Shown: positions 6,547 to 62,440, numbered from the stretch's first letter. The stretch: DNA of 62,611 nt from an uncultured Candidatus Saccharibacteria bacterium (GCA_964362125.1 CAYICS010000004.1:1-62611); one strand, 5' to 3'. Made by a program: numbers and translations. Notes: generated by a model not told the origin, from the letters alone.

Positions 6547-6620
6547 AATTTTCAATGTTCAATGATCAATGATCAATTTTCAATTAAGGTACATTAAATG
6601 AAAATTGTAAATTGAAAATT
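6547..6620. repeat. Heptamer-array hairpin (TTTTCAA/TTGAAAA type)
   Basis: AATTTTCAAT...ATTGAAAATT terminal IR; same start as 47749-47872. Confidence 0.85.
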
Positions 6621-6640
6621 ATTCTGCTACCATAGGAGCC

Positions 6641-7558
6641 ATGGAGCAGCTGCTTTTAGTTTTGATAGTTATTCTTTTAGCCGCCTTAATTTTTCTAACT
6701 TTGCGCCGGAAGCCAGGAGAAACAAAGCCAGACTCATTGCTTTTACTGCAAAACCAGCTCAATGATATTCGCGGCTCGATGCATCAGGTTTTCAAAGAGG
6801 TGGCGGCCGAGCTGGTGAAGTTGGGTGAGGGCCACAAGCAGGTGGTGGGCTTTGCCGACCAACTGAAAAACCTTCAGGATATTTTAAAAAATCCCAAACA
6901 GCGGGGGATTCTGGGGGAGTATTATTTGGAGACAATGCTTAAAAATGTTCTGCCGCCCGGCCAGTATCAGCTCCAGTACGGCTTCAAAGATGGCGCCAAA
7001 GTGGATGCCGTCATTTTTGTCAAAGACAAAGTTATTCCCATTGACTCCAAATTTAGTCTGGAGAATTACCAGCGCGACGACAAAATTTTCTTTCAGGATT
7101 TAAAAATAAGAATTGATGAAACTGCCAAATATGTCCGGCCCGAAGAAAAGACTTTTGATTTTGCTTTTATGTTTATTCCAGCCGAAGCCATTTATTACGA
7201 TTTACTGGTGAACAAGGACTGGCTCAGTTACGCTTGGAACAAAAAGGTGATTGTGGTTTCGCCCAACACTTTTTATCACTCACTGCAGATTATTATGCAA
7301 GGATTGAAGGCCTTGCAGATTGAGGAGTCGGCCAAGGAAATTATTAAGCGAGTGGGAGATTTGGGTCGGCATATCGGCACTTACGAAGAATATATGAAGA
7401 AGCTGGGCAATCATCTCGGCACCAGCATCAACACTTACAACGCCGCCTATAAAGAGTTGGGGAAGATTGATAAGGATGTCTTACGGATCACCGGCCAAGC
7501 CGCCGGCATCGAGCCAGAGGCCTTGGACAAACCGCGGGAAGATGAGGAAGGGCTGTAA
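6641..7558 (+). CDS. rmuC: DNA recombination protein RmuC
   Basis: N-terminal TM, coiled coil, RGILGE..LE, VIPIDSKF, FAFMFIPAEAIY motifs. Confidence 0.92.
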   Translation: MEQLLLVLIVILLAALIFLTLRRKPGETKPDSLLLLQNQLNDIRGSMHQVFKEVAAELVKLGEGHKQVVGFADQLKNLQDILKNPKQRGILGEYYLETMLKNVLPPGQYQLQYGFKDGAKVDAVIFVKDKVIPIDSKFSLENYQRDDKIFFQDLKIRIDETAKYVRPEEKTFDFAFMFIPAEAIYYDLLVNKDWLSYAWNKKVIVVSPNTFYHSLQIIMQGLKALQIEESAKEIIKRVGDLGRHIGTYEEYMKKLGNHLGTSINTYNAAYKELGKIDKDVLRITGQAAGIEPEALDKPREDEEGL

Positions 7559-7560
7559 TG

Positions 7561-7653
7561 AAACTCAAAAGTCAAAAGTCAGAAGTCAAAACTATAAATC
7601 AAAAGTCAAAACTAACGAAAGTTTTAAGTTTTGAGTTTATGATTTAGAGCTTT
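7561..7653. repeat. Heptamer-array hairpin (AAAGTCA/TTTTGAG type)
   Basis: Tandem AAAAGTC units and an inverted arm TTTTGAGTTT, between convergent rmuC and groL. Confidence 0.75.
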
Positions 7654-7659
7654 ATAAGT

Positions 7660-7737
7660 ACCCTAAACCCCCCGCCTGCAGACGCCTGGAGCGTCAGCGA
7701 CTGGCGGGCAGGTAAACCCTATACCCTATACCCTAAA
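7660..7737. repeat. (CCCTAAA/CCCTATA)n array interrupted by the 42-bp GC element (7671-7712)
   Basis: ACCCTAAACCC[42 bp]TAAACCCTATACCCTATACCCTAAA; the 42-mer recurs at 35359, 54149 and 55735. Confidence 0.85.
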
Positions 7738-7753
7738 TTTTTTGTTTAGAGCT

Positions 7754-9397
<1,644 letters not shown>

Positions 9398-9404
9398 TTA
9401 AGAT

Positions 9405-9698
9405 TTATGATTCAAGAATGGCGAGAATATCGTCTTCGTCGGCGACCAGATATTTTTTGCCGTCAATTTCAATCTCATCCGGTCCGTATTTTTTAAATAG
9501 AACAAGATCTCCGACCTTGACTGCCAGCGGCAGTAAGTTGCCTTGGTCATTGCGCTTGCCCGGGCCCACAGCCACTACCCGGCCCTGAATTGGTTTCTCT
9601 TTTTCCGCTGTATCCGGCAAGACAATCCCGGACTTAGTTATTTTGTCTTCGGCAATCGGTTCCAGAAAGACCCGATTGGCCAATGGCTTCAAATTCAT
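9405..9698 (-). CDS. groS: Co-chaperonin GroES
   Basis: LKPLANRV, SGIVLPDTAEKEKP motifs; 97 aa, upstream of groL. Confidence 0.99.
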   Translation of the reverse strand: MNLKPLANRVFLEPIAEDKITKSGIVLPDTAEKEKPIQGRVVAVGPGKRNDQGNLLPLAVKVGDLVLFKKYGPDEIEIDGKKYLVADEDDILAILES

Positions 9699-9708: not shown

Positions 9709-9738
9709 ATTATAACCCCCGCCCCCCGCCATTGTCAA
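9709..9738 (-). promoter_or_regulatory. sigma70-type promoter of groESL
   Basis: TTGACA-N18-TATAAT on the minus strand, ending 11 nt before the groS ATG; no CIRCE seen. Confidence 0.75.
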
Positions 9739-9766
9739 ATGTTTGGGGGTGAGACCCCCAAACATT
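9738..9766. repeat. 29-bp hairpin AATGTTTGGGGGT-GAG-ACCCCCAAACATT
   Basis: Perfect 13-bp stem; second, inverted copy at 30872-30898. Confidence 0.8.
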
Positions 9767-11788: not shown

Positions 11789-11873
11789 GGAAGGGTCGCA
11801 TAGCGGTCTATTGCAGCGGCTTGGAAAGCCGCGCCCCGCAAGGGGCTCGTGGGTTCGAATCCCACCCCTTCCG
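11789..11873 (+). tRNA. tRNA-Ser (GGA), long variable arm; CCA not encoded at this copy
   Basis: GGAAGGG/CCCTTCC acceptor stem, anticodon loop TT-GGA-AA, GGTTCGAATCC T-loop. Confidence 0.95.
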
Positions 11874-11875
11874 CA

Positions 11876-11946
11876 CTTCGGCAAGCTCAGTGCAAGCAAC
11901 TTCGGCAAGCTCAGTGCAAGCAACTTCGGCAAGCTCAGTGCAAGCA
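11876..11946 (+). repeat. Tandem repeat (CTTCGGCAAGCTCAGTGCAAGCAA)x3
   Basis: Identical 24-bp units with no spacers. Confidence 0.95.
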
Positions 11947-11967
11947 TAGGGAAACACCAAAATAACT

Positions 11968-12261
11968 ATGACTACGTGGCACGTGTATATGCTTCTTTGC
12001 GATCAGAAAACTTTTTATGTAGGCATTACCGATGATCCTAAAGAACGATTTGCAGAACACCAAGCGGGTAAGTCGCTTTTTACAAAAAAGTTTTCTGACA
12101 TTCAATTTGTCTACTGCGAAAACTATCCCACAAAGCGCGAATCAGCATCACGCGAAAAACAAATTAAGGGATGGTCGCATGCAAAGAAGCAAATGTTGAT
12201 TGATAGAAAGCTGGGATATAATTTTTGTACTGAGCTTGTTGAAGTTTTGGGGGTGGGATAA
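11968..12261 (+). CDS. Small stand-alone GIY-YIG nuclease (UPF0213/YhbQ-like)
   Basis: HVYMLL...FYVGITDD..R..H...RE.QIKGWS..KK motifs. Confidence 0.9.
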   Translation: MTTWHVYMLLCDQKTFYVGITDDPKERFAEHQAGKSLFTKKFSDIQFVYCENYPTKRESASREKQIKGWSHAKKQMLIDRKLGYNFCTELVEVLGVG

Positions 12262-12538
12262 CTTGCTCTGAGCCTGCCGAAGAGAATCCCACCCCTTCCG
12301 CCAGTTAGTAAATGAAGTTATTGGCTCGCCCGCTCCCACTTCGCCCTTCGGGCTATAAGGAACAAGTCGTGGGCTCGCCAGCCGTTTTTCGGGGAAATTT
12401 CAAGCCGTTTTGCCTGCCCGCCGAAGCCTTGGCGCAGGCAGGAATTCAAGTAAGGCCAAAAGCGGGCTTTTCTTTTCTGAATTGAAAGAAATCATAATTT
12501 TTGATAGTATAGTATAGAAGATTTGTTGAACAAATAAT

Positions 12539-15355: not shown

Positions 15356-15390
15356 CCAGGTTGTAGGTTATAGGGAATAGGTTCTAGTAT

Positions 15391-15546
15391 ATGAAAATAG
15401 ATTCTTACAAAAACCTATTGGAGACACAGTTGGAGATAGCGAAACGTTTCTCATGGACTGAAAGGTCAAATTTCGATAAAGTCGATAAACTTTTAGATGA
15501 GGTCATGCGAATGTTAAACAAAATAATCAGAGAATTAAATGATTAA
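15391..15546 (+). pseudogene. Internally deleted four-helix-bundle (23S rRNA-IVP/bAvd-like) gene flanked by inverted heptamer arrays
   Basis: Translated by hand: MKIDSYKNL fused to LETQLEIAKR...LLDEVMRMLNKII; 12-bp perfect IR 15357-15368/15570-15581. Confidence 0.7.
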
Positions 15547-16033
15547 AAATCTACTACCTACAACCTACCACCTACAACCTGAAAAAGGATTCACCTTGAT
15601 TGAAGTTTTGATTTATTTGGCGGTGATGGCGGTGGTGGTGCCGCTCTTGTTGAATTTATTTGATGTAACAGTCAGTTCGGGCGCGCTTAATCGGGAAATG
15701 CGGGAAAGCCGGGCCGAAGCCAGTCGCGCTTTGCAGATAATGATCCAGATGGTGCGCAACGGCTCGGAATTAAAGAAGCCGGCATTAGGCGCCGGCGCCA
15801 GTGAACTGCAAATTGACGATAAAAGATTTTTCTTGGAAAGCGGCCAGATTAAAATTGAGGAAGGCGCCGCCGCCGTTCAGCCGCTAACCGCTGCCGGTTT
15901 TCTGGTTTCTGATCTTCAATTCTCTAATTTTTCCAGATTCGGCACAGCCGGTTTAGTCACAATCCGGTTTAAAATTAAAAGAGGCGACTATGAAAAAATC
16001 TATTACGGCGCAGCCGCGTTAAGAAGGAATTAG
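15539..16033 (+). CDS. Type IV minor pilin (PilW/GspJ-like)
   Basis: KG-FTLIEV prepilin motif; leader encoded by a heptamer repeat. Confidence 0.85.
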   Translation: MIKNLLPTTYHLQPEKGFTLIEVLIYLAVMAVVVPLLLNLFDVTVSSGALNREMRESRAEASRALQIMIQMVRNGSELKKPALGAGASELQIDDKRFFLESGQIKIEEGAAAVQPLTAAGFLVSDLQFSNFSRFGTAGLVTIRFKIKRGDYEKIYYGAAALRRN

Positions 16034-19011: not shown

Positions 19012-19856
19012 TCGTTAATAGCATCATCGCCGGTTCTATCTACACTCTGGTGGCGCTGGGTTTCAATCTGATCTACGGCGCCACCAAGTTTTTCAATCTG
19101 GCTCATGGAGTTTTGGCGGCGGTTGGGGGATACACGGTTTTTTTCTTTTTCAAAGAGTGGGGCTGGAATGTTTATTTGGCGATCCTTCTGGGCGTCGCTC
19201 TGGCCGGTTTCATCGGCTATCTCTTGGATAAATTCATTTACTTTCCTCTGCGTCGGCGCGGCGCTTCCGGTATGGTCTTGCTGGTGGCGTCACTGGGCGC
19301 CTTCACCGCCATCCAAGCCATTATCGCCATTTTATTCACCAGTCAGTTTCAGACGCTGGCTCAAAATGTCGGCGGCCAGACAATTTATGAGGTTACCTCG
19401 GCTGTCATCACCCAAACTCAGGTAATCATCTTTGTTCTTGGTTTATTGATTATGGCCGGCTTGATGCTTTTGCTCAACTACACTTTATTTGGCAAAGCGG
19501 TAAAGGCCATTAGCGACGATGAAGAAGTGGCGCGGATTGTTGGTATCAATACCGACAAAATAATTGGTTGGGTATTTGGCATCGGCTCTGGGATTGCGGG
19601 ATTGGCCGGGATTATGGTGGGTTTTGATACAGGCATTGAACCAACTATGGGCATGGCCTTGTTGCTCAAAGGCGTGATTGGCGCCATCATCGGCGGCGTA
19701 GGCAACATTTACGGCGGCGTGCTTGGTTCTTTCTTGCTGGGTTTTGTGGAGAATTTTGGAATCTGGAAAATAAGTGGAGAATGGAAAGACGCGATAGCTT
19801 TTGGATTATTGATAATATTTTTACTATTTAGACCCAAGGGAATAATCCAAAAGTAA
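18990..19856 (+). CDS. livH: Branched-chain amino acid ABC permease LivH
   Basis: LVALGFNLIYG...FFNLAHG, GKAVKAIS, GGVGNIYG motifs. Confidence 0.92.
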   Translation: MGILPQLVVNSIIAGSIYTLVALGFNLIYGATKFFNLAHGVLAAVGGYTVFFFFKEWGWNVYLAILLGVALAGFIGYLLDKFIYFPLRRRGASGMVLLVASLGAFTAIQAIIAILFTSQFQTLAQNVGGQTIYEVTSAVITQTQVIIFVLGLLIMAGLMLLLNYTLFGKAVKAISDDEEVARIVGINTDKIIGWVFGIGSGIAGLAGIMVGFDTGIEPTMGMALLLKGVIGAIIGGVGNIYGGVLGSFLLGFVENFGIWKISGEWKDAIAFGLLIIFLLFRPKGIIQK

Positions 19857-19979
19857 TTTCTAATGACTAATTTCTAATGTCTAATGAAATGATTAATTCC
19901 CAATGTTAAAAAGTCGAGAGCTAATATTGTTTAGTCATTGGACATTTCATTAGGAATTAGACATTAGAAATTAGACATT
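19855..19979. repeat. Heptamer-array hairpin (TCTAATG/CATTAGA type)
   Basis: Inverted arms fill the whole livH-livM spacer. Confidence 0.85.
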
Positions 19980-26490: not shown

Positions 26491-26904
26491 ATGCCAACAG
26501 TTAGACAGTTATTGAGAAAAGGCAGAAAGGCCAAAGCGCGTAAGTCCAAGGCGCCAGCGCTTTCGCGTTATTTTAATACCATAAAAAATCGGCCGGTGGA
26601 GTCGCCATCGCCTTTTAAGCGCGGCGTTTGTCTGAAAGTTTTCACTACTACTCCTAAAAAACCTAACTCAGCCTTAAGAAAAGTTTGCCGGGTGCGATTG
26701 ACCAATGGTGAAGAAGTGACCGCTTATATTCCCGGCGAGGGTCACAATCTGCAGGAACACTCGGTGGTGGTGTTGCGGGGCGGCCGGGTCAAAGATTTGC
26801 CGGGAGTCCGCTATCATGTGGTGCGGGGCGTTTTAGATACCACTGGTGTGGAAGTCAGGAAACAACAGAGGTCGAAGTATGGAGCCAAGCGCCCTAAGGC
26901 TTAA
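26491..26904 (+). CDS. rpsL: 30S ribosomal protein S12
   Basis: [23 protein letters not shown]. Confidence 0.99.
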
Positions 26905-26935
26905 CCTTTGATATTTGACCTTTGATATTTGACCA

Positions 26936-27403: not shown

Positions 27404-27407
27404 CAGA

Positions 27408-27508: not shown

Positions 27509-27517
27509 CCAAAACCT

Positions 27518-42176: not shown

Positions 42177-42508
42177 TGCGGGTTAGATTTCATAAAGAGT
42201 TGGCCGCCGGGAGATGGTTTCAACTATCACTGGAAGAGCAATTGGGTAATATTGGCAGTGAGGTTAGCCGGGCCCGGCATTGGCAGGGGAAGAATGAGAA
42301 ATATTTTTGGGAGGCGGTGGAGGCAGCTTTAGAACTTTTTGACTTAACTTTAGAAGATGAACGATGGCGGGGGCGGCGCTGGGAGATTGCCCGGGCGCGG
42401 GAGGTTTTTGTGGACGCTGTTTACGGCGGCAAAGAATACAACAGCTCATTGGAGGATTTGGATAAGTATTTTACAGATTTTGCTCTTGCCGCCCGCAGCC
42501 GGACTTGA
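42176..42508 (+). CDS. Conserved helical hypothetical protein coupled to DUF5674
   Basis: GRWFQLSLEEQLGNIGSEV...EIARAREV. Confidence 0.7.
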   Translation: MRVRFHKELAAGRWFQLSLEEQLGNIGSEVSRARHWQGKNEKYFWEAVEAALELFDLTLEDERWRGRRWEIARAREVFVDAVYGGKEYNSSLEDLDKYFTDFALAARSRT

Positions 42509-45656: not shown

Positions 45657-45994
45657 CTAGAAGTTCTAAAAAAGGTCCGTATGTTGATGAAAAACTTTTG
45701 AAGAAAGTGGCTAAGTTGAAAGTCGGTCAAATTAAAGAGATTAAAACCTGGTCCCGAGCTTCAGAAATTGCCCCGGAGATGGTTGGTTTTACCATTCACG
45801 TCCATCAAGGGAAAAATTTTGTGCCAGTAGCCATTCGAGAAGAAATGGTTGGTCATCGCTTAGGTGAATTCGCTCCCACCCGCAAGTTCGTTAAGCATGG
45901 AGGAAAGATTCAGCGCGAACAGGAGCAGAAGCGAGCAGAGGCGGAGAAAGCGGCGGCACAAGCGGCTAAGGCCACCGAAAACCCTAAACCCTAA
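45653..45994 (+). CDS. rpsS: 30S ribosomal protein S19 with a C-terminal extension
   Basis: [23 protein letters not shown]; stop supplied by the CCCTAAA array. Confidence 0.98.
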
Positions 45995-46004
45995 ACCCTA
46001 AACG
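45979..46004. repeat. (CCCTAAA)n array, left arm flanking rplV
   Basis: 45983-46004 is the exact reverse complement of 46515-46536. Confidence 0.9.
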
Positions 46005-46006: not shown

Positions 46007-46507
46007 ATGTCTACTGCAACAGCCAAACTAAAATATCTAAAAATCGCGCCGCGCAAGGTGCGGTTGCTTGCTAATACCCTTAAAGATTTAACAATCAATG
46101 AGGCTGAGGCTCAGTTGCTGTTGCGGCCGCAGCGTTCGGCGCCGGCGTTGTTGAAACTGCTCCGTTCGGCAATAGCCAATGCTAAACAAAAAAAGTTATC
46201 AGTTAATAAATTAACAGTTACCAGTATTACAGTTGATCAGGGGCCGATGTTGAAAAGATTTTTGCCGCGAGCCATGGGCCGGGCGACGCCTATTCATAAA
46301 AAGACCAGTCATATTACCATTGTTTTAACTGAAGCTAACAAAGAATTACCAACAAGGTTTACGATTTTACCGAAAGAAAAGAAGGTTAAGAAAACAGCTA
46401 AACCTAAAGGGCGCAAGACTGAACCAAAGGCAGAGGCGAAAATCCAGCCTAAAGTCGAAGAAAAACCCGGCTTTTTCCGCCGCATCTTCCGTCGTAAAGC
46501 GATATAG
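46007..46507 (+). CDS. rplV: 50S ribosomal protein L22 with a Lys-rich C-terminal extension
   Basis: IAPRKVR, VDQGP.LKR..PRAMGRA. Confidence 0.98.
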   Translation: MSTATAKLKYLKIAPRKVRLLANTLKDLTINEAEAQLLLRPQRSAPALLKLLRSAIANAKQKKLSVNKLTVTSITVDQGPMLKRFLPRAMGRATPIHKKTSHITIVLTEANKELPTRFTILPKEKKVKKTAKPKGRKTEPKAEAKIQPKVEEKPGFFRRIFRRKAI

Positions 46508-46540
46508 GGTTTAGCGTTTAGGGTTTAGGGTTTAGGATTT
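46505..46540. repeat. (TTTAGGG)n array, right arm flanking rplV
   Basis: 22-bp perfect inverted match to the left arm. Confidence 0.9.
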
Positions 46541-46547
46541 AAAAAAG

Positions 46548-47338: not shown

Positions 47339-47749
47339 ATGTTAATACCTAAAAAAGTAAAACATCGAAAATGGATGAAGGGGCGTTCGCGGAAGCGCCG
47401 ACTTGATACCCGAGGAACAAAATTAGCTTTCGGTAGTTTTGGCTTGAAAGCGGAGGGTTCGGCTTGGATTAATTCGAAACAAATCGAAGCCGCCCGCCGC
47501 ACCATCACCAATTTCATTAAACGCGAAGGTAAAGTTTGGATTAGAATTTTTCCAGACAAACCGGTGACGATGCGGCCGCCAGAAGTAACTATGGGCGGCG
47601 GCAAAGGGTCGGTCGATCATTATGTTTTCCCAGTGAGGCCGGGCCGGATTTTGTTTGAGATGGATGGGGTAAGCCCTGAGGTTGCCAAAGAGGCGCTTAG
47701 ACTAGCAGGACATAAACTTCCCATTAAGACGAGAATAGTTACTAAATAA
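47339..47749 (+). CDS. rplP: 50S ribosomal protein L16
   Basis: [25 protein letters not shown]. Confidence 0.99.
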
Positions 47750-47872
47750 ATTTTCAATGTTCAATGATCAATTTTCAATTAATGACTCAATGATTCAATT
47801 TTCAAACCCGTTGGTTTGTTTCATTGCTTCATTGAAAATTAAATGAAAATTGAAAATTGGTAATTGAAAATT
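47749..47872. repeat. Heptamer-array hairpin (TTTTCAA/TTGAAAA type)
   Basis: Starts at the rplP stop; homologous to 6547-6620. Confidence 0.88.
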
Positions 47873-47881
47873 ATAAAAACA

Positions 47882-49202: not shown

Positions 49203-49663
49203 AAAAAATAGTTATCAATAGCGGGGTGGGGCGGTTATCACAGCAGGCGAATTTTGAAGAAAAAATTTTGCCGGAGTTGATGAGAGACTTTGCTTTAATT
49301 ACCGGTCAGAAACCAGCCGCCAGGCAGGCGCGGCAGTCTATTGCCGGTTTTAAATTGCGGGCCGGCACAGTGGTCGGTTTGAAGGTTACTTTGCGGGGCC
49401 GGCGGATGCAGGAATTTTTAGAGAGGTTGTCTAAAGTGGCTTTGGCCCGGGTTCGGGACTTTCGCGGCGTTGATTTGAAAAATGTTGATAAAAATGGTAA
49501 TCTAACCATTGGTATTAAAGAACACACGGTCTTTCCCGAAGTGTCTCCAGAAACCTCCCGCTATGATTTTGGTTTGGAAGTGACGATGGTGCCTAAAGTT
49601 AAAGGACGGGAGAAAGCTATAGAGCTTTATCGGGAACTGGGGATACCGCTAAAGAAATCCTAA
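49175..49663 (+). CDS. rplE: 50S ribosomal protein L5 (N-terminally short)
   Basis: LEKIVINSGVG, ITGQKP, RVRDFRG. Confidence 0.97.
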   Translation: MSKMQNSALEKIVINSGVGRLSQQANFEEKILPELMRDFALITGQKPAARQARQSIAGFKLRAGTVVGLKVTLRGRRMQEFLERLSKVALARVRDFRGVDLKNVDKNGNLTIGIKEHTVFPEVSPETSRYDFGLEVTMVPKVKGREKAIELYRELGIPLKKS

Positions 49664-49784
49664 ACTCTAAATTCTAAACCATAAATCCTAAACAAATCCC
49701 AATGACACAAATCCCAAATTCCAAACTGTTTGTGATTTATGATTTAAAATTTAGATATTGTTTAGAGTTTAGAGTTTAGGATTT
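49655..49784. repeat. Heptamer-array hairpin (CTCTAAA/TTTAGAG type)
   Basis: 17-bp terminal IR AAATCCTAAACTCTAAA/TTTAGAGTTTAGGATTT; supplies the rplE stop. Confidence 0.88.
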
Positions 49785-49793
49785 AACAAATAT

Positions 49794-49981: not shown

Positions 49982-50081
49982 GTATCGATACCAATATACT
50001 AATTTACGAATGATACGAATGGGTTACGAATCACAATCGGTATTAGTATAATTAGTATCATTCGTATATTAGCATCGATAC
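49982..50081. repeat. GTATCGATGC palindromic element, copy 4 (inverted)
   Basis: Reverse complement of copy 3 with few mismatches. Confidence 0.9.
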
Positions 50082-50499: not shown

Positions 50500-51054
50500 A
50501 TGAGTAAACTAGGCAGAAAACCAATTGCTATTCCCAGTGACATAGAGGCCCGGCTGGCGGACGGCATTTTTTATTTTAAGGGCAAGGCCGGGCAGACCGA
50601 ACTGAAAGTCCTGCCTTATCTTGAAGCCAAACTTCAGGATCAAGAGATTACTGTTAAGCCGGTTAATAATATCCGGCAGGCTCGGGCTAATTGGGGGACG
50701 ATGGTTTCTTTAATAAAAAATGCCATTGCCGGTGTTAGTGAGGGTTTTAGCAAAGAACTGCAAATCGAAGGCATTGGTTATCGGGCTAGTATTGAAGGGG
50801 ACAAGTTAAATCTCAGCATCGGCTTCAGTCATCCGGTAAAATATCAGCCGCCAACGGGCGTGAAAATCAGTGTTGAGAAAAACATCATCAAGATTTCGGG
50901 AATTGATAAGCAGTTAGTGGGATTGGCGGCTTCGCAGATCCGTAAATTGAAGAAACCCGAACCTTATCAGGGCAAGGGGATCAGATATGTGGGCGAGGTC
51001 ATCAGGAGAAAGGCCGGGAAAAAAGCAGCGGCAGCGGCAGGCGCAGCCGCCTAG
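50500..51054 (+). CDS. rplF: 50S ribosomal protein L6
   Basis: SKLGRKPI, GIGYRA, PEPYQGKGIRY. Confidence 0.98.
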   Translation: MSKLGRKPIAIPSDIEARLADGIFYFKGKAGQTELKVLPYLEAKLQDQEITVKPVNNIRQARANWGTMVSLIKNAIAGVSEGFSKELQIEGIGYRASIEGDKLNLSIGFSHPVKYQPPTGVKISVEKNIIKISGIDKQLVGLAASQIRKLKKPEPYQGKGIRYVGEVIRRKAGKKAAAAAGAAA

Positions 51055-51159
51055 TATCGATGCTAATATACGAATGAATGCGAATGATGCGAATAAGCTC
51101 ACGAATGATTCGTAAACCCCATTCGTATCATTCGTAAATTCGTAGATTCGCATCGAAGC
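51054..51159. repeat. GTATCGATGC palindromic element, copy 5
   Basis: Begins on the G of the rplF TAG stop. Confidence 0.9.
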
Positions 51160-51992: not shown

Positions 51993-52341
51993 ACCAACTG
52001 ATCGAAAATATCCGAAGCCGCGGGTGGGTAGAGGGGGCAAGCGGGGCACTTATTCTGGTCGGGGAATGAAAGGACAAAAAGCCCGGGCTGGCCATCGCAT
52101 CCGGCCAGCTGAGCGTGATTTTCTTTTGCGTTTGCCTAAACTGCGCGGCTTTAAAAATAAACCGCTTCAGCCCAAATTACCAATAATTAATGTGGGAGAT
52201 TTAGAGAGGCGCGGCTTACCTGATTATCCGGTAAAAATTCTCGGTAGGGGCGAATTAACCAAGCCGTTTCATATCAAAGGCCGGCCGGTTTCTAAGTCAG
52301 CTAAAGAAAAAATAATTAAAGCTGGCGGTTCGGTGCAATGA
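51973..52341 (+). CDS. rplO: 50S ribosomal protein L15 (short); rpmD absent upstream
   Basis: RVGRGGKRG.YSGRGMKGQKAR, LPKLRGF. Confidence 0.96.
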   Translation: MQLHQIRPTDRKYPKPRVGRGGKRGTYSGRGMKGQKARAGHRIRPAERDFLLRLPKLRGFKNKPLQPKLPIINVGDLERRGLPDYPVKILGRGELTKPFHIKGRPVSKSAKEKIIKAGGSVQ

Positions 52342-52624
52342 ATCCCGTTAGAGACAACCATGTTCTACTATGTTTATGTCTTACAAAGCAAAAAGGATAG
52401 ACGCTGGTATACAGGATTTACCGATGATCTACGGAAGCGCTTTAATCAACATAACGCAAATCTACAGGGCTGGACTAAAAATCGTGGCCCTTTTGACCTT
52501 ATCTACTTTGAGGGTTGTAAAAATGTTACCGATGCAAGGTCGAGAGAAAAATATCTTAAATCAGGCATGGGTAAGCGCTACCTTAAAAATAGATTAAAGC
52601 GCTTCCTGTCTCTAACGGGATGAA
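52342..52624. mobile_element. IR-flanked GIY-YIG mini-element in the rplO/secY stop-start overlap
   Basis: 15-bp perfect IR 52342-52356/52607-52621; ATGAA direct repeat 52338-52342/52620-52624. Confidence 0.8.
52360..52623 (+). CDS. Small stand-alone GIY-YIG nuclease
   Basis: YVYVLQS...WYTGFTDDLRKR..QHN...REKYLKSG.GK. Confidence 0.92.
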   Translation: MFYYVYVLQSKKDRRWYTGFTDDLRKRFNQHNANLQGWTKNRGPFDLIYFEGCKNVTDARSREKYLKSGMGKRYLKNRLKRFLSLTG

Positions 52625-53882
52625 CTTCCTCAACGCTTTCAAAATATCAGAGATAAGAAATAAGATTCTTGTCATCGCCGGCCTGCTGATTGCCTTTCGG
52701 GCAATGGCCGCCATTCCTTTGCCGGGCATTGATCTGATCCGGCTTCGAGAATTATTTTCTTCCAACCAGTTGCTGGGCTTCTTAAATATTTTCTCTGGGG
52801 GGGCCCTTGATAATCTTTCAATCGTCATGTTAGGGGTCGGCCCCTACATTACTGCCACTATCGTCATGCAGTTGTTGACGATGATTTTCCCGGCATTAAA
52901 AGCAATGTATTACGAAGAGGGAGCGCTGGGGCGGGCTAAATTCAATCGTTATTCAATTTACTTAACCGTGCCTTTGGCCGCTTTGCAGTCTTATGGTTTT
53001 TTGAATTTACTGAACCAGCAGGGGGTTTTTACTAATTTTAGTTTATTCAATGTTTTAACGATGGTGATTGTGGCTACCGCCGGCTCGATGATTCTGGTTT
53101 GGTTGGGCAATATTATTACTCAGCAGAAAATCGGCAATGGTGTTTCTTTAATAATTTTTGCCGGCATCGTCGCCGGCATTCCGCAAGCAGTCCAGGCCGG
53201 TATTCTTTCCTATGACCCCTCAATTATTACCACCTACATTGCTTTTGCAGTTTTGGCGGTGATTATTGTGGCTGGAGTGGTGTTTGTCACTGAAGGCGAG
53301 AGAAAAATTCCGGTCTCTTATGCCAAACGGATTCGGGGGATGAGGATGTATGGCGGTGCCGCCAGTTACCTGCCGCTGCGGGTTAATCAGGCCGGGGTCA
53401 TTCCTATCATCTTTGCTATTTCCATTTTGCTTTTTCCGCAGTTCTTAGCCCAGATCAGCGCCATCATCTCCCGAGATTTTTCGGTGACTTTTAATGAATG
53501 GGTCAATTACTTTTTCAATAACCAGATTATTTACGGCTTGGTTTATTTTGTGCTGGTAGTGGTCTTCACTTATTTTTACACGGCCGTCACTTTTGATCCC
53601 AAGGAAATTGCCAAAAACCTGCAGCAGGCTGGCGGTTTTGTGCCGGGGATCAGGCCGGGAGAGCCGACGGCTGATTTTTTAAGCAAGGTTCTTAACCGCA
53701 TTACTTTGTTCGGCGCTATCTTTTTGGGGGTGATCGCGGTTCTGCCCAACATCACTCAGATTATCACCGGCATTCAGCGACTGGCGATCGGCGGGACAGC
53801 TCTCTTGATTGTGGTGTCAGTGGCTTTGGAAACAATGCGGCAGATTGAAGGCCAGTTGGCTATAAGGGAGTATGATTTTTGA
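52620..53882 (+). CDS. secY: Preprotein translocase subunit SecY
   Basis: LGVGPYITATI, GNGVSLIIF, PLRVNQAGVIPIIFA, GGTALLIVV. Confidence 0.99.
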   Translation: MNFLNAFKISEIRNKILVIAGLLIAFRAMAAIPLPGIDLIRLRELFSSNQLLGFLNIFSGGALDNLSIVMLGVGPYITATIVMQLLTMIFPALKAMYYEEGALGRAKFNRYSIYLTVPLAALQSYGFLNLLNQQGVFTNFSLFNVLTMVIVATAGSMILVWLGNIITQQKIGNGVSLIIFAGIVAGIPQAVQAGILSYDPSIITTYIAFAVLAVIIVAGVVFVTEGERKIPVSYAKRIRGMRMYGGAASYLPLRVNQAGVIPIIFAISILLFPQFLAQISAIISRDFSVTFNEWVNYFFNNQIIYGLVYFVLVVVFTYFYTAVTFDPKEIAKNLQQAGGFVPGIRPGEPTADFLSKVLNRITLFGAIFLGVIAVLPNITQIITGIQRLAIGGTALLIVVSVALETMRQIEGQLAIREYDF

Positions 53883-53883
53883 G

Positions 53884-54140
53884 ATCCGAATATGGCTGGC
53901 GCAGACTTGCCCCTCCATTACTTTTCCTAAGAGTAATGGGGCTTGCCTTCAGGAAACAGAATAGTTTTCTTCCAGCGAGAAAACTTTCTTCTCCCTCGGC
54001 CAGCGGCTTTTTGTTTCCGCCTGAGGCGGACGATTATAACAAAAAGACCAAGCCCGCTGGCCTCCGGGATGTTCCTTCAGACAAGTCCCATTACTCTTTC
54101 CAAAAGTAACGGAACAAGTCTGCGCCACCCATATTCGGAT
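53884..54140. repeat. 257-bp imperfect palindrome, followed by the 42-bp GC element (54149-54190)
   Basis: ATCCGAATATGG/CCATATTCGGAT, TGGCGCAGACTTG/CAAGTCTGCGCCA and further nested IR pairs. Confidence 0.85.
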
Positions 54141-54240
54141 ATTATTCGCCCGCCTGCAGACGCCTGGAGCGTCAGCGACTGGCGGGCAGGCAGATTAGGA
54201 TCGGGTTCAATTTTTTGTTGTTTTGTGTTATAATTTTAAA

Positions 54241-55649: not shown

Positions 55650-56003
55650 ATGAAGAGGTTGTTGATGTTAGCCAGTCTGGTGGTGCTGGGGATGGCCGGC
55701 GGCGTGCGCGCCGGGGATGAGCCCCTTCTCCAGGCCCGCCTGCAGACGCCTGGAGCGTCAGCGATTGGCGGGCAGGCCCGGGCCTGGGCTGAGGAACAGC
55801 CGGCGGCAGTGAGCTGTTGTCCGCTCTGCGGCGCAGTTCATACCACCGGTCGGCTTCTCTGCGCCAGTGTCACCACTGTCGGTGACGCCGCTGTCTCGAC
55901 CGTGAGGTTCACGGTTAAGGCCAGCAAGCGCTTTGGCCAACAGACTGCTGGGGGCGTCAGCGCCTTCTGGCGGCGCACCAAGGCGCGCTTCTCCTGTAGG
56001 TAG
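55650..56003 (+). CDS. Hypothetical secreted protein carrying an in-frame 42-bp repeat (55735-55776)
   Basis: AGGAG RBS, signal peptide ending VRA, CPLC motif. Confidence 0.5.
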   Translation: MKRLLMLASLVVLGMAGGVRAGDEPLLQARLQTPGASAIGGQARAWAEEQPAAVSCCPLCGAVHTTGRLLCASVTTVGDAAVSTVRFTVKASKRFGQQTAGGVSAFWRRTKARFSCR

Positions 56004-56159: not shown

Positions 56160-58582
<2,423 letters not shown>

Positions 58583-58586: not shown

Positions 58587-58892
58587 ATGTCGATTATTGA
58601 TAAAAAATCACTTCAGCACCTAGCTAAATTGTCTCGGCTGGAATTGACTGCGGCTGAATCCTCAAAGCTGCTTCAAGACTTGCAGGAGATTTTGAATTAT
58701 TTTGAAGAATTAAAAAAAGTTAATACAGAAAAAGTCGAGCCGATGACCGGCGGCCATCGGTTAGTTAATATTTTTCGCGAGGATGTTTTAGATCTGGATC
58801 GCCGCTCTCAGACCATCAGCGACCCGGGAAGAATTATTGAAGCTTTCCCTGAAAGTGAACGGGGCTTTAACAAAGTATCAAGAGTGCTATAG
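58587..58892 (+). CDS. gatC: Asp/Glu-tRNA amidotransferase subunit C
   Basis: HLAKLSRL, ILNYFEEL, FREDV; upstream of gatA. Confidence 0.93.
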   Translation: MSIIDKKSLQHLAKLSRLELTAAESSKLLQDLQEILNYFEELKKVNTEKVEPMTGGHRLVNIFREDVLDLDRRSQTISDPGRIIEAFPESERGFNKVSRVL

Positions 58893-58898
58893 CACTCA

Positions 58899-59003
58899 GT
58901 ATCGATGCTAATATACGAATGAATGCGAATGATACGAATAAGCACACGAATCGATTGGCAACCCTATTCGTAGATTCGCAAATTCGTAGATTCGCATCAA
59001 AGC
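58899..59003. repeat. GTATCGATGC palindromic element, copy 6
   Basis: First 41 nt identical to copy 1; fills the gatC-gatA spacer. Confidence 0.9.
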
Positions 59004-59007: not shown

Positions 59008-60393
59008 ATGCATCTCCACGATCTCACAATTAAAAAAGTCCATGACGATCTGACTAGCAAGAAATATTCAGCTTTGGAGCTGGTGAAAAATTTTTATAAA
59101 TGGATCGAAACCAAAGATAAAGAAATTGGCGCTTACCTGTATTTAGGCAAAGACGATGCTTATCTTCAGGCGGAGAAAGTGGATATTGCTCTGGCTAAAG
59201 GCGAGGCCATTGGTGAATTGGCCGGCGTGCCGCTGGCGATTAAAGACAATATTTTAATTGCCGGCCAGCTGGCCACTGCCGCCTCAAGAATTTTAGAAAA
59301 TTATATGGCAATTTACGACGCCACTGTCATTAGAAAACTGCGTAAAGCTCAGGCGGTATTTTTAGGTAAAACCAATCTCGATGAGTTTGCCATGGGATCA
59401 TCCACAGAAAATTCCGGCTTCCAGATTACTCACAATCCTCATGATTTAGATAAAGTCCCGGGTGGTTCTTCCGGCGGCTCGGCGGCGGCTGTGGCGGCTC
59501 ATATGGCTGTAGCCGCTTTGGGCTCGGATACCGGCGGCTCTATTCGTCAGCCGGCAGATTTTTGTCAAATAGTGGGACTGAAGCCAACTTACGGCGCTGT
59601 CTCTCGTTATGGGTTGATGGCTATGGCTTCCAGTCTTGATCAGATCGGTCCTCTTACCAAAACTGTTGAGGACGCCGCTATTTTATTTGAGGCCATCGCC
59701 GGCCAGGATTCTTTTGATGCCACTTCCGCTGATGTAACTTACGGGCCGGAGTTGGGCCAGCCCAAATTAGAAAGAATTAGAGAAATGACCATCGGCCTGC
59801 CTAAAGAATATTTCATTACCGGTCTTGATAAACAGATTGAAGAAAAAATTCAACAGGTTATCACTCAATTAAAGACGCTTAAAATCAAATTTAAAGAAAT
59901 CTCCCTGCCTCACACCCAATACGCTCTTTCCTGCTACTATATAATTATGCCAGCCGAGGTTAGCGCTAATTTAGCCCGCTACGATGGCGTTCGCTATTCC
60001 CGCGGCCGCAGTAAAGGAGATTTTGGGGCGGAGGTGAAGCGGCGGGTGATTCTGGGCACTTTTGTTCTTTCTTCCGGCTACTACGATGCTTACTACGCCA
60101 AAGCCCAAAAAGTCCGGGCGCTGATCAAAAAAGATTTTGATGAGGTCTTTAAAAAAGTGGATGTCATTTTAGCGCCGGTTTCGCCCACCCCGCCCTTTAA
60201 GATCGGGGAGAGGATGGCCGATCCCTTACAGATGTATCTTTCTGATATTTTTACCATCCCCGCTAATCTGGCTGGCCTGCCGGCGATTACCATTCCTCCC
60301 GGCTTTCAGTTAATCGGCAAGCCTTGGCGCGAATCCGATATTTTAGGTATTGGTCAATTCTATGAACGAATTAGCAATCAGTCTCACAGCTGA
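59008..60393 (+). CDS. gatA: Asp/Glu-tRNA amidotransferase subunit A
   Basis: KTNLDEFAMGSSTE, PGGSSGGSAAAV, GSDTGGSIRQPA. Confidence 0.98.
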   Translation: MHLHDLTIKKVHDDLTSKKYSALELVKNFYKWIETKDKEIGAYLYLGKDDAYLQAEKVDIALAKGEAIGELAGVPLAIKDNILIAGQLATAASRILENYMAIYDATVIRKLRKAQAVFLGKTNLDEFAMGSSTENSGFQITHNPHDLDKVPGGSSGGSAAAVAAHMAVAALGSDTGGSIRQPADFCQIVGLKPTYGAVSRYGLMAMASSLDQIGPLTKTVEDAAILFEAIAGQDSFDATSADVTYGPELGQPKLERIREMTIGLPKEYFITGLDKQIEEKIQQVITQLKTLKIKFKEISLPHTQYALSCYYIIMPAEVSANLARYDGVRYSRGRSKGDFGAEVKRRVILGTFVLSSGYYDAYYAKAQKVRALIKKDFDEVFKKVDVILAPVSPTPPFKIGERMADPLQMYLSDIFTIPANLAGLPAITIPPGFQLIGKPWRESDILGIGQFYERISNQSHS

Positions 60394-60853
60394 TATCAGT
60401 TCTGTCGTCGGAGGCCTTTGGAATTGGCTCTCGGCTAATTTAATTTGGTTTCAAATTATCGGCGGCCTCCTCTCTCTTTTTTTCATTTGGGTTATTATTC
60501 ATTCCATTCGCAAAAGCGGCTATCACTATATTAAGGCTGATACTTGGCGTGATCGTCTCAATATCAAAAATCTGCCCACGGTTATGGCTAAGCGCGGTTG
60601 GAAAATAGCCATAAAGCATGTTGGCAGTCGGGATCCAGCCCGATGGCGGCAGGCAGTGACTGAGGCAGATAATGCGATAAAAGAATGGCTGATACTGAAG
60701 CCCTTAAAAGCCGAGGTAGAGGGGTTGGAGGGGGCCCAGAGGTTGGCCAAAGATATTAAAAATAATCCGGATCTGGAGATAACCAGAGAGGAGGCTATTC
60801 AAGCCCTTCGGGTTTATAAAAAAGCCCTGCAGTATTGGGGCTTGACAAATTAA
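60362..60853 (+). CDS. Conserved CPR-type membrane-anchored hypothetical protein
   Basis: One TM segment, W..AVTEAD, EA...Y.KAL. Confidence 0.7.
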   Translation: MNELAISLTADISSVVGGLWNWLSANLIWFQIIGGLLSLFFIWVIIHSIRKSGYHYIKADTWRDRLNIKNLPTVMAKRGWKIAIKHVGSRDPARWRQAVTEADNAIKEWLILKPLKAEVEGLEGAQRLAKDIKNNPDLEITREEAIQALRVYKKALQYWGLTN

Positions 60854-60877
60854 ACCCGATTGTCCTAGCATAAAATT

Positions 60878-61078
60878 GGCTCTTCATTTAGTATCCCCCA
60901 GCTGGCGCAGGCGTCTCAACTGCCACTAGTCTTTAAGAGCGCGCCCTGCGCCAGCTCTCTTACACCCGCCCGGGCGGCGGTGGAATACCTAATCTCGATG
61001 GTGGTATCAACCTCCAACGGAAGTTGATACCCCTCGCAAAAGGTGTACATCAGTACCGCCACCCAGGCGGATTTTTTT
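60878..61078 (+). ncRNA. Candidate ~200-nt structured ncRNA
   Basis: Own promoter (TTGACA-N18-TAGCAT, 60842-60871), two long hairpins, terminator with T7; no ORF. Confidence 0.4.
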
Positions 61079-61081
61079 ATT

Positions 61082-61160
61082 TGGCGCGGCCGACCGGATT
61101 TGAACCGGCGATCTTCTCCTTGACAAGGAGACGTGTTTGGCCAGGCTACACCACGGCCGC
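61082..61160 (-). tRNA. tRNA-Asp (GTC), CCA encoded
   Basis: GCGGCCG/CGGCCGC acceptor, TT-GTC-AA loop, GGTTCAAATCC. Confidence 0.96.
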
Positions 61161-61162
61161 AC

Positions 61163-62440
61163 TTATAATAATCTTACCAACTGCTTAAACTTTTGTCCAC
61201 GATCCGCATAGCTCTTGAACATATCAAAACTAGCGGCGCCGGGGGAGAGGATGACGACATCGCCCGACTGAGCCAGTTTTTTAGCCAGGCCCACCGCTTT
61301 TTTTAAATTCGTACTTTCGTATATTCGTACTTTATTCGTAATTCGTAGAGCTTTCTTGATCTTGTTTTTGTTTTCGCCCATCAGGATCAGGGCGCGAATC
61401 CGAGCTCGGGGCAGGGCTTGGGCCCAAATCTTATAATCCAACCCTTTGTCCTTGCCGCCGACAATCAAGACCTTTGGTTCTCTAAAAGCCCGGGCCGCCG
61501 CCACTGTGCCTTCCGGATCGGTGTTGGCAGAGTCGTTGTAATAGCGAACGTCTTTGAGATTTCGCACAAATTCTAATCTATGTTCATTGCCTTTAAATTT
61601 GGAAATTGCTGCCAATGATTTTTTCAATGGGCAGCCCAGATATTTAGCCGCCGCCAGCGCCGCCTGGGCGTTGCGGAAATTGTGTTGCCCGGGTAATTTT
61701 AGCGTTTTACGAAGAAGCGATCGTTCTTTGGCGCTTATATAATGCCAGACAGAAATCTGCCGGCCCGGGCTTTGCTTGGCAATCCGAGCGGAGAGTTTAT
61801 TGTCAGCCAGATAAAAGATTACATCGTTTGCTGTTTGGCGCTGGGCGATTTGGGACTTGGCTTCGAAGTATTCTTTTAAGTTTTTATGATGATCAAGGTG
61901 ATCAGGAAAAACATCCACTACCACAGCCATCTGGGGCGCCCGGTCAATATCCTGAAGCTGGAAACTGGACAACTCCAAAATCACAATTTCGCGTCCTCGG
62001 AGGACGCGAAATTGGGGAAGAAGGTCTAGGGCCGGGGCGCCGATATTGCCGGCTAGATGCGTCCGCCAACCGGATTTTTTCAGAGCTAGATAAAGCAGGG
62101 TGGCAGTCGTGCCTTTGCCCTTGGTGCCGGTGATGCCGATAACCGGGCAGGGACATTTTTGGAAAAATAATCTGGTTAAACTGGTTATATTAGGGTTTAG
62201 GGTATAGGGTTTAGGGTTTAGTAAGCGATAAGGCACTCCGGGCGACCTAAAAATCAGGTCAAATTTTTTCAGGCCGCGCAAATAGTTTTTGCCCAATTGT
62301 TTGTGGACGCCGGCCGGCACCTTCAGCCGAGCATTTTGATCCAACACCCAAATATCCAATCTATTGATGTGAGACATCAATAGATATTGGTAGATGGCGT
62401 TGCCTTCGCGGCCGAATCCAAGAATGGCAATTTTTGACAT
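61163..62440 (-). CDS. murD: UDP-N-acetylmuramoyl-L-alanine--D-glutamate ligase
   Basis: IAILGFGREG, FRSPG, GITGTKGKGT, LELSSFQL, HLDHH, HRLE, YYNDS, LSPGAASF. Confidence 0.97.
   Translation of the reverse strand: MSKIAILGFGREGNAIYQYLLMSHINRLDIWVLDQNARLKVPAGVHKQLGKNYLRGLKKFDLIFRSPGVPYRLLNPKPYTLNPNITSLTRLFFQKCPCPVIGITGTKGKGTTATLLYLALKKSGWRTHLAGNIGAPALDLLPQFRVLRGREIVILELSSFQLQDIDRAPQMAVVVDVFPDHLDHHKNLKEYFEAKSQIAQRQTANDVIFYLADNKLSARIAKQSPGRQISVWHYISAKERSLLRKTLKLPGQHNFRNAQAALAAAKYLGCPLKKSLAAISKFKGNEHRLEFVRNLKDVRYYNDSANTDPEGTVAAARAFREPKVLIVGGKDKGLDYKIWAQALPRARIRALILMGENKNKIKKALRITNKVRIYESTNLKKAVGLAKKLAQSGDVVILSPGAASFDMFKSYADRGQKFKQLVRLL

Follow-up and report, generated by a model that had tools for sequence, protein, structure and literature searches.

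Inverted-repeat-framed single-gene cassettes and gene-less hairpins at the gene junctions of a Candidatus Saccharibacteria contig

The framed small genes of the window

We analyzed a stretch of 62,611 nucleotides (the window; contig C4, CAYICS010000004.1) from an uncultured Candidatus Saccharibacteria bacterium, which carries the genes for S12-S7-EF-G, EF-Tu-S10-L3-L4, L23 through L15, and then SecY-Adk-Map. The host genome comprises 618 kb in 24 contigs and is approximately 97% complete, and related contigs have Patescibacteria labels and a groundwater aquifer origin. The window contained three small genes framed by inverted repeats (IRs) and about 25 to 30 hairpins, half-arms, or in-frame arrays. 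The three genes had been picked out in an initial annotation made from the window alone, and both profile matches and visible inverted-repeat frames confirmed them: a GIY-YIG gene between rplO and secY, a second GIY-YIG gene next to a tRNA-Ser gene, and a remnant of a four-helix-bundle gene. The same annotation had counted about 25 gene-less hairpins and half-arms, which was a fair figure, as inverted- and tandem-repeat scans list dozens. Rfam searches of the window and of six cassette loci returned tRNAs only.

The 282-bp GIY-YIG element (52343 to 52624, plus strand) consists of a left terminal inverted repeat (TIR) at 52342 to 52356 (ATCCCGTTAGAGACA), an open reading frame (ORF) at 52360 to 52623, and a right TIR at 52607 to 52621, which lies within the 3' end of the ORF. 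The terminal repeats are 14 to 15 bp long (ATCCCGTTAGAGAC), and the 52342 to 52356 and 52607 to 52621 segments pair perfectly over 15 bp. The ORF encodes 87 aa with GIY-YIG (PF01541; E value, 9e-18) as the sole domain above the curated cutoff, and the closest solved structure is that of the UPF0213 protein BH0048 (1ZG2; E value, 8.6e-8). The sequence TGAA occurs at 52339 to 52342 and again at 52621 to 52624, on the two flanks of the element, which sits in the ATGA stop/start overlap of rplO and secY. The stop codon of the ORF is supplied by the flank duplicate, while the last A of the element plus the duplicated TG make up the secY ATG. When 52343 to 52624 was taken out in silico, the sequence CAATGAACTTC was left, in which the rplO stop and the secY start overlap, and none of 29 relatives had a gene between rplO and secY. 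The element may have entered the ATGA overlap with duplication of TGAA, in which case the duplication would have provided its stop codon and rebuilt the start of secY.

A scan of a genome collection gave at least 499 relatives of this element. The best 80 were compared, and the statistics on flank identity and arm covariation were based on 76 of them. Their proteins were 64 to 86% identical to the 87-aa protein and came from genomes labeled as Patescibacteria (many classes), Woesearchaeota, Omnitrophota, Planctomycetota, Nitrospirota, Desulfobacterota, and others. In each of the 80, CCGTTAGA stood 12 to 24 nt 5' of the ATG, and the 3' end of the ORF carried TCTAACGG; the typical form was atgA followed by ATCCCGTTAGAGAY at the left end and RTCTCTAACGGGAT followed by GAa at the right end. 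Identical ends were found at unrelated loci in three other genera (G002, G014, and G011). With the element boundaries set two bases outside CCGTTAGA, the 4-base flanks matched on both sides in 38 of 76 elements, mostly as TGAA but also as TGG, TCAA, and TTGA, compared with approximately 7 expected (an estimate from base frequencies), a difference to which selection on stop and start codons could contribute. The inner arms covaried, with position 3 being complementary in 72 of 76 elements versus 31.5 expected under random re-pairing of arms. Gene-less copies with the same ends were 37 to 124 nt long, with a mode at approximately 116 nt, and had a small GC hairpin beside one end. Such copies lie next to many of the full ones, and two are present in the host genome (C2:81164-81281 and C3:52705-52822); none were found within the window.

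The second GIY-YIG cassette (11875 to 12301, plus strand) follows directly on tRNA-Ser(GGA) (11789 to 11874, plus strand). It begins with three copies of a 24-mer (11875 to 11946), followed by the ORF (11968 to 12261) and by inverted 24-mers at 12222 to 12245 and 12260 to 12283. The 18-nt 3' end of the tRNA gene (11857 to 11874) is exactly repeated on the far side of the cassette, at 12284 to 12301. The ORF encodes 97 aa, again with GIY-YIG (PF01541; E value, 4e-15) as the only domain above the curated cutoff, and relatives of the 24-mer were found near another GIY-YIG gene on contig C5. The cassette probably entered the 3' end of the tRNA-Ser gene, which the 18-bp duplicate would have restored. 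Small GIY-YIG genes lay no more than 200 nt from a tRNA gene in 12 of 34 cases, compared with approximately 1 expected (an estimate from tRNA gene density), and 4 of those 12 had tRNA-end duplicates of 15 to 18 nt. A large subfamily of small GIY-YIG genes, marked by ECADGTLYCGSTND, had no flanking IRs (scores of 16 to 21, equal to controls), and thus IR framing belongs to particular subfamilies and not to all small GIY-YIG genes. The GIY-YIG genes C5:36677-36919 and C6:4083-4397 had tandem palindromic repeats on their 5' sides and duplicated 5' portions of tRNA genes on their flanks. Because the sequence downstream of the C5 gene has an intron-like look, an intron-bearing tRNA beside it was considered as well, but Rfam at gathering thresholds gave nothing.

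Four-helix-bundle and GxxExxY cassettes and their hairpins

We scored the complementarity between the upstream and downstream flanks of every long ORF in the genome. At a score of at least 30, 8 of 12 GIY-YIG, four-helix-bundle, or GxxExxY genes were framed, compared with 1 of the 224 remaining small ORFs and 7 of the 414 large ORFs. Inverted unit arrays flanked all four of the four-helix-bundle genes and all four PF13366/GxxExxY genes of the host genome, and the framed exceptions were three Y1 (RAYT-like) genes, three PaaX-like genes, one cassette neighbor, and L22. Across 60 genomes of the same order, with a threshold of at least 25 and shifted loci as controls, the flanks were inverted repeats at 24 of 30 four-helix-bundle loci (versus 3 of 107 controls) and at 26 of 29 GxxExxY loci (versus 1 of 52 controls). 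The arms in these relatives were nearly always tandem units, the unit sequence varying by locus. The IR-gene-IR arrangement that had been put forward as the full design is therefore both specific and general. The PaaX-like genes are paralogous, encode approximately 190 to 230 aa, and are framed by long palindromes with scores of 45 to 84 (C13:9850-10428, C5:5390-5944, and C17:624-1319).

The third framed gene of the window belongs to a decayed cassette (15357 to 15581, plus strand), in which inverted AGGTTGT heptamer arrays (15357 to 15387 and 15551 to 15581) surround an ORF at 15391 to 15546. Its 51 aa match the last third of a four-helix-bundle protein (TIGR02436 positions 68 to 108 of 109). 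Identity to the C terminus of an intact paralogue is 40% over 40 residues (78 to 117), and the N-terminal SYKNL is kept. Because the C-terminal match is joined to this retained N terminus, the gene is internally deleted. Judging from its sequence, the remnant is a stage on the way from a full cassette to an empty hairpin, in agreement with the earlier idea that the empty hairpins are deleted derivatives. The locus would represent the decay of a cassette of the type known from intervening sequences (IVS) of rRNA, with a four-helix-bundle gene between heptamer arrays. The right array is translated as codons 5 to 15 of the pilin-like ORF that follows.

Every IR family had gene-less copies in the host genome, as the initial annotation had anticipated. 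Arms of the AATTTTCAAT family frame the four-helix-bundle gene C23:2129-2500 and form empty hairpins in the window at 6547 and 47749, and the arms of the four-helix-bundle gene on C1 recur as the empty hairpins C14:5217 and C22:4792. Gene-less arrays were likewise found on other contigs for the AGGTTGT and AGCTTTT arm families. The ATTCGTA family occupies 21 loci in the host genome, six of them within the window, and has a single full form, C3:49767-50196, in which the start and stop codons of a 129-aa GxxExxY gene lie inside the arms; some of the empty ATTCGTA hairpins retain the ATG and first codons of this full element. A search with the 21-nt ATTCGTA arm word against metagenome contigs gave 35 contigs from many samples, most of them without other nucleotide similarity to the host genome. 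They carried full forms of 455 to 467 nt (GxxExxY proteins 62 to 76% identical), empty hairpins of 79 to 125 nt, and half-arms. The same arm and cognate gene recur as a pair across species, and the elements have spread horizontally.

These data also bear on whether replication slippage and template switching, in a genome with a tendency toward 7-bp repeats, produced the arrays and palindromes in place, with no transfer between sites. The copy number of units varies, many arrays and half-arms are solitary, and the number of heptamers differs among Coxiella strains (PMC4990558), all of which slippage would explain. It would not explain why copies at different loci have 40 to 100 nt of nonperiodic sequence in common, termini and loops included, why unrelated contigs contain identical 21-nt arm words, or why the ends of the GIY-YIG element are conserved in 80 of 80 relatives from many phyla. 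Additionally, derived substitutions across the whole element are common to members of the ATTCGTA family at different loci, and likewise to members of the CCCGTTAGAG family (the TIR of the GIY-YIG element). We give local slippage almost no credence as the origin of the repeats.

Hairpins were abundant far beyond chance: a gapped self-complement scan found 156 in the genome with a score of at least 44 and a single one in a dinucleotide shuffle. Approximately 10% of the genome is noncoding, uncovered by long ORFs, and this fraction held 102 of the 156. An ungapped scan overlooked most of the bulged hairpins, and the counts rest on the gapped scan. The inverted- and tandem-repeat scans resolved the arms as runs of 7- or 8-nt units, and clustering gave many unrelated families, including ATTCGTA (approximately 100 nt, with the conserved termini GTATCGATGC..GCATCGATAC), AATTTTCAAT, CTAAAyy, and several short GC-rich palindromes. 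RNA folding of six hairpins gave z scores from -2.8 to -9.2, five being at -6 or lower and 38056 to 38192 at -2.8. The stems at 47749 to 47877, 38060 to 38186, and 51054 to 51156 had 2-nt internal loops every 7 nt, with 5 paired and 2 unpaired nucleotides per unit. With such units, the structure resembles a series of repeated recognition words more than a simple stem.

The six gene-less ATTCGTA hairpins of the window (no strand is assigned to these or to the other hairpins) were found at the S7/EF-G junction (27407 to 27513; termini GTATCGATGC..GCATCGA), 5' of L23 (42517 to 42602), at the S3/L16 (47228 to 47327), S14/S8 (49982 to 50081), and L6/L18 (51054 to 51156) junctions, and between ORFs 58587 to 58892 and 59008 to 60393 (58898 to 59003). 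Gene-less hairpins of the AATTTTCAAT family occupy a stop/start junction (6547 to 6620) and the L16/L29 junction (47749 to 47877), and a heptamer hairpin of a AATTTTCAAT-related cluster lies at the L3/L4 junction (38060 to 38186). Other heptamer hairpins were located between two membrane-transporter ORFs (19854 to 19979; units CTAATGA and TAATTTC), at the L5/S14 junction (49655 to 49785; CTAAAyy family), and 3' of the stop of ORF 6641 to 7558 (7561 to 7653; AAAGTCA unit). Arrays also occur in frame within ORFs: 4.3 copies of AATTACC (58138 to 58167, plus strand) account for 11 residues of the 674-aa ORF 56558 to 58582, and 4.6 copies of TTAGGGT (62190 to 62221, minus strand) are read as LNPKPYTLNPN in the 445-aa ORF 61163 to 62500. 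Further half-arms or in-frame arrays are at 5696 to 5764, 7716 to 7735, 9388 to 9417, 26904 to 26934, 32504 to 32536, and 61308 to 61333. The approximately 25 hairpins of the window, which the initial annotation had taken to be spread by the cognate small protein, belong to four-helix-bundle and GxxExxY cassettes on other contigs and not to the two GIY-YIG genes of the window. Approximately 20 gene-less hairpins and half-arms with 7- or 8-nt units would be stripped copies of IVS-type cassettes, the full forms of which, on other contigs, carry as cargo a four-helix-bundle gene or a gene for a GxxExxY nuclease, predicted to be of the PD-(D/E)XK type.

Two half-arms are placed around an ordinary gene. 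The last codons of S19 contain 3.6 copies of AAACCCT (45979 to 46003, plus strand), which pair across the whole of the L22 gene with 5.3 copies of TAGGGTT on its 3' side (46505 to 46541, plus strand). Among the ordinary small genes of the genome, L22 alone had an IR frame (flank score, 48). It is placed like cargo in a 560-nt hairpin, an arrangement for which two eroded hairpins or a single event could both account.

Junctions in related genomes and other repeats

The ribosomal-operon junctions were compared with those of 8 genomes of the same family. The S3-L16 gap was 119 nt in the window and 5 to 13 nt or an overlap in the relatives, and similar differences were found for L16-L29 (132 nt versus no more than 11 nt), L5-S14 (130 nt versus no more than 16 nt), S14-S8 (114 nt versus 1 to 11 nt), and L6-L18 (122 nt versus 5 to 27 nt). 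With L15-SecY included, these six junctions measured 114 to 278 nt here and no more than 27 nt in the relatives, and no hairpins were detected by score at the six junctions in the 8 genomes. Because the 8 relatives lacked all of the ribosomal-operon hairpins that were checked, the hairpins are insertions and not conserved regulators. Empty orthologous junctions had been expected at the outset, with hairpins shared by close relatives and small genes no more often framed than others as the contrary result, and neither of the latter was found. The large L14-L24 and S8-L6 gaps of the relatives were considered as cassettes and turned out to be operon breaks with other genes.

The comparison also contradicts an origin of the hairpins as static host regulatory RNA, that is, as terminators, attenuators, or RNase III processing sites keeping the expression of ribosomal proteins in balance, with the small genes merely nearby. 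Placement at stop/start junctions, strong RNA folds (z scores of -6 to -9 in five of six), and the RNase III gene encoded in the host genome would all suit such a role. However, the ribosomal-operon junctions checked are hairpin-free in the same-family relatives, and members of the same families are read in frame within ORFs and accompany the cognate gene in unrelated organisms, making a purely regulatory origin highly improbable.

More closely related sequences, at approximately 80% nucleotide identity, were obtained from a metagenome scan, and they showed turnover at the junctions themselves. The host genome has a four-helix-bundle cassette at C5:39137-39578, and its relative has a GxxExxY cassette at the orthologous position (L247:456-937), which suggests reuse of a hot spot or replacement of one cassette by another. 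At a second orthologous junction, the host genome and the relative had different hairpin families, and two further junctions had a half-arm in the relative and nothing in the host genome.

GxxExxY cassettes were also inserted in frame, arms included, within proteins of related genomes: in RecG in four genomes (L192, L194, L195, and L196), between DEQHRFGV and SATPIPRTL; in LepA in three (L213, L214, and L216), 5' of LIDTPGH; and in a glycosyltransferase in one (L200). The RecG and LepA sites were at the same position in genomes of different families. As far as the sequences tell, this is an intein-like choice of site without a splicing domain, compatible with homing or with descent.

Such sites raise the question of whether the genes are the invaders and the hairpins their targets, with nuclease genes homing into the loops, the arms serving as repair homology, and the empty hairpins being unoccupied sites. 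Two flanking arms of 30 to 45 nt would be long enough for recombinational repair; the recurrence of GxxExxY at one RecG position in four genomes and one LepA position in three is a homing-like choice of site, and one junction carries different cargo in two relatives. Yet each arm family of the host genome has one occupied copy against 10 to 20 empty ones, and the internal deletion at 15391 points to decay from full to empty. Furthermore, the first codons kept by some empty ATTCGTA hairpins, and ORFs that start and end within the arms, mark gene and arms as one unit. We therefore regard homing into preexisting hairpins as rather unlikely.

A claim of the initial annotation, that no transposase, integrase, or reverse transcriptase is present, was correct for the window, but elsewhere the genome encodes three Y1 (RAYT-like) transposases and one Xer-like integrase; no reverse transcriptase gene was found anywhere in it. 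A link to diversity-generating retroelements, whose Avd protein is a relative of the four-helix-bundle proteins, was ruled out with the reverse transcriptase. Each RAYT-like gene (C3:41101-41841, C8:3339-4082, and C9:5775-6548) has its own short palindrome family (for example, AATGTTTGGGGGTCTCACCCCCAAACATT, with 11 copies). One such palindrome, the REP-like (repetitive extragenic palindromic) 29-nt AATGTTTGGGGGTGAGACCCCCAAACATT at 9738 to 9766 (no strand assigned), is in the window; it belongs to the family that flanks C3:41101-41841 and falls outside the cassette classes. A genuine REP/RAYT layer thus exists in this 0.6-Mb genome and accounts for elements such as 9738 to 9766 but not for the heptamer hairpins.

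It is very unlikely that the heptamer hairpins themselves are REP/REPIN-like elements moved in trans by RAYT-like Y1 transposases, with the small genes as passengers. The three Y1_Tnp genes (C9:6039, C8:3600, and C3:41356), each flanked by palindromes, are what such an account would need, but their palindromes are GC-rich, 29 to 35 nt long, and unrelated to the heptamer hairpins of approximately 100 nt. No Y1 gene was found in 24 of 37 relatives with four-helix-bundle cassettes or in 12 of 21 with GxxExxY cassettes, counts that rest on metagenome-assembled genomes (MAGs) and carry the caveat of incompleteness. Moreover, arm family and cargo protein are paired across species.

Several further repeats and insertions were observed in the window. 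The SecY-Adk spacer, 358 nt here and 4 to 74 nt in the relatives, is filled by a GC-rich, nearly perfect self-complementary element of 257 nt (53884 to 54140), and the 356-nt stretch around it (53880 to 54235) gave an RNA fold of -168 kcal/mol; this insert differs in kind from the heptamer hairpins. A perfect 36-nt palindrome (TACATCCCTTATTCGTACGAATAAGGGATGTA, 29686 to 29721) lies 3' of EF-G between direct-repeat arrays at 29651 to 29698 and 29736 to 29790. A GC-rich element of 42 to 44 nt (CCCGCCTGCAGACGCCTGGAGCGTCAGCGACTGGCGGGCAGG) has three copies (7671 to 7712, 54149 to 54190, and 55734 to 55777), one of them inside ORF 55650 to 56003. The ribosomal-protein operon is broken between L4 and L23 by approximately 4 kb of small genes (38804 to 42508), including an NYN-domain gene, a DUF5674 gene, and pairs of short ORFs that appear toxin-antitoxin-like, and a 398-aa ORF (42906 to 44102) splits L23 from L2, genes that are less than 21 nt apart in 7 of 8 relatives.

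Interpretation and relation to known systems

The initial annotation had treated all framed genes and hairpins as a single system. It has to be divided into no fewer than three unrelated classes of cassette and the separate REP/RAYT layer: a GIY-YIG TIR element with copies resembling miniature inverted-repeat transposable elements (MITEs), tRNA-targeting GIY-YIG cassettes, and IVS-type four-helix-bundle and GxxExxY cassettes with their hairpin relics. We assign a probability of approximately 0.6 to the reading that the window has been colonized by several unrelated tiny selfish cassettes of one design, a single gene between inverted repeats with gene-less derivatives, in which small nucleases cut beside their own repeats and the host completes the move. 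Mobilization by the small proteins is the conditional part of this reading. By analogy with the Ssn GIY-YIG nucleases (PMC11893778), the small nucleases would recognize their own repeats folded in single-stranded DNA and cut beside them, and host replication or repair would then finish the move or copy. RNase III may cut the long stems in transcripts, as in rRNA intervening sequences, which would make insertions within operons tolerable.

A number of points weigh against this reading. To our knowledge, strand transfer is beyond a hydrolytic nuclease alone, and the four-helix-bundle protein is not an enzyme. Exact flank duplication was found in only half of the GIY-YIG elements, and selection on stop and start codons could also keep it. 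The host genome has one full copy per heptamer family, and any recent activity is therefore not by full elements. The published Ssn motif (SRM) is absent from the host genome, and the three RAYT-like transposases might act in trans. The different hairpin families at the second orthologous junction could equally reflect in situ turnover of an old hairpin, and no movement was seen: contigs from the same aquifer with the exact L15 protein were 99.9 to 100% identical to the window here.

The IR-gene-IR design has published precedents, of which the Ssn nucleases are one. These GIY-YIG proteins of approximately 94 aa cut single-stranded DNA beside a hairpin repeat (SRM/NTS), and the genes encoding them lie between such repeats. 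The authors described this arrangement as identical to that of an insertion sequence and interpreted Ssn as a regulator of transformation, not as a transposon (PMC11893778). The present GIY-YIG proteins are likewise single-domain proteins of approximately 90 aa (87 and 97 aa; below 150 aa) with no DNA-binding domain, and they share the repeat-framed gene and the many gene-less repeats. The 87-aa protein has Y6, Y17, and E63, at or beside Y6, Y17, and E64 of SsnA, mutation of which abolishes cutting (PMC11893778); the putative catalytic residues thus match in position. The two differ in that the gene here is inside one long inverted repeat (TIR CCCGTTAGAG), while the ssn genes lie between separate small hairpins, and in the TGAA-type flank duplication and start-codon targeting of the window element. 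The SRM motif, HGTCWY..RNCYNB, had 3 matches in the genome and 3 in shuffles, with none at 500 nt or less from any GIY-YIG gene. Given the absence of this motif, we rejected membership in the canonical Ssn/SRM system and kept Ssn as a mechanistic analogy. The closest solved relative is a UPF0213 protein, and any placement of the window proteins in the Ssn clade (CDD cd10448) would be tentative.

The second precedent is the ORF-bearing IVS of 23S rRNA, known from Coxiella, Leptospira, and Xanthomonas (PMC4990558). In Coxiella, it has a 28-bp terminal stem, an S23p four-helix-bundle ORF, and a variable number of GACAGAT heptamers and is excised by RNase III; the authors regarded such sequences as selfish elements of unknown origin that spread horizontally with no known means of movement (PMC4990558). 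Our cassettes have in common with it the four-helix-bundle ORF (S23p; TIGR02436/PF05635), the long terminal inverted-repeat stem, and the tandem heptamers. In contrast, they are located at protein-gene junctions and, in relatives, in frame within RecG and LepA, they include a second cargo, the GxxExxY nuclease, on the same design, and they are accompanied by numerous gene-less hairpins. A location within rRNA (helix 25 or 45 of 23S) was rejected, as no rRNA was found at the scanned cassette loci, including contig C23.

Other known systems were less similar. REP/REPIN-RAYT systems also have one gene flanked by palindromes that it is thought to disperse and many gene-less copies at junctions, but neither the heptamer hairpins nor the CCCGTTAGAG element has a Y1 transposase as cargo, and their arms consist of tandem 7- or 8-nt units or of 14-bp TIRs approximately 250 bp apart. 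Insertion sequences and MITEs (Correia, RUP, and Nezha) resemble the GIY-YIG element in their terminal inverted repeats and insertion at gene junctions and in having nonautonomous copies, here of approximately 116 nt, and the short flank duplication, exact in half of the GIY-YIG elements, may be a further likeness; the element differs in having no DDE, serine, tyrosine, or HUH transposase, its only ORF in a total of 282 bp being for a predicted 87-aa hydrolytic nuclease. Free-standing GIY-YIG homing genes (phage T4 Seg/Mob) and inteins are similar in that nuclease genes lie between or within conserved essential genes, tRNA genes included. Unlike the homing genes, however, the GIY-YIG element has no DNA-binding domain for a long target and is present at many unrelated loci with only ATGA in common, and unlike inteins, the in-frame GxxExxY insertions have no splicing domain. 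Rickettsia palindromic elements can be in frame inside proteins, and the short tandemly repeated repetitive (STRR) heptamers of cyanobacteria are abundant in intergenic DNA. We know of no cognate gene for either, whereas each arm family here has a gene-bearing form. In a literature search of incomplete coverage, we found no description of a GIY-YIG element with TIRs and target-site duplications or of heptamer-array cassettes outside rRNA.

A stronger form of our interpretation, which we hold as doubtful, is that the cassettes form a new class of autonomous minimal mobile elements. Each would encode as its sole factor either a nuclease no longer than 130 aa (GIY-YIG or GxxExxY PD-(D/E)XK) or a four-helix-bundle binder, acting on its own inverted repeats folded in single-stranded DNA, and the 23S rRNA IVS would be the rRNA-resident members. 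If this is true, no autonomous transposon of a cellular genome would be smaller than the 282-bp GIY-YIG element, and members of the class would insert at operon junctions as well as, in frame, into essential proteins, RecG and LepA among them.

The cassettes may represent a very small and poorly described kind of mobile DNA. The two abundant orphan families "23S rRNA IVS protein" (four-helix bundle) and GxxExxY, and with them the small UPF0213-like GIY-YIG proteins, would gain a testable role in reading or cutting their own repeat arrays, and if the nucleases are sequence or structure specific on single-stranded DNA, as Ssn is, the pairs of protein and repeat would be candidate molecular tools. 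The 30-year-old question of the origin of rRNA intervening sequences would be tied to a general class of hairpin cassettes. Dozens of selfish insertions would be tolerated in the most essential operons of 0.6-Mb genomes, which bears on the evolution of reduced genomes and on the annotation of MAGs.

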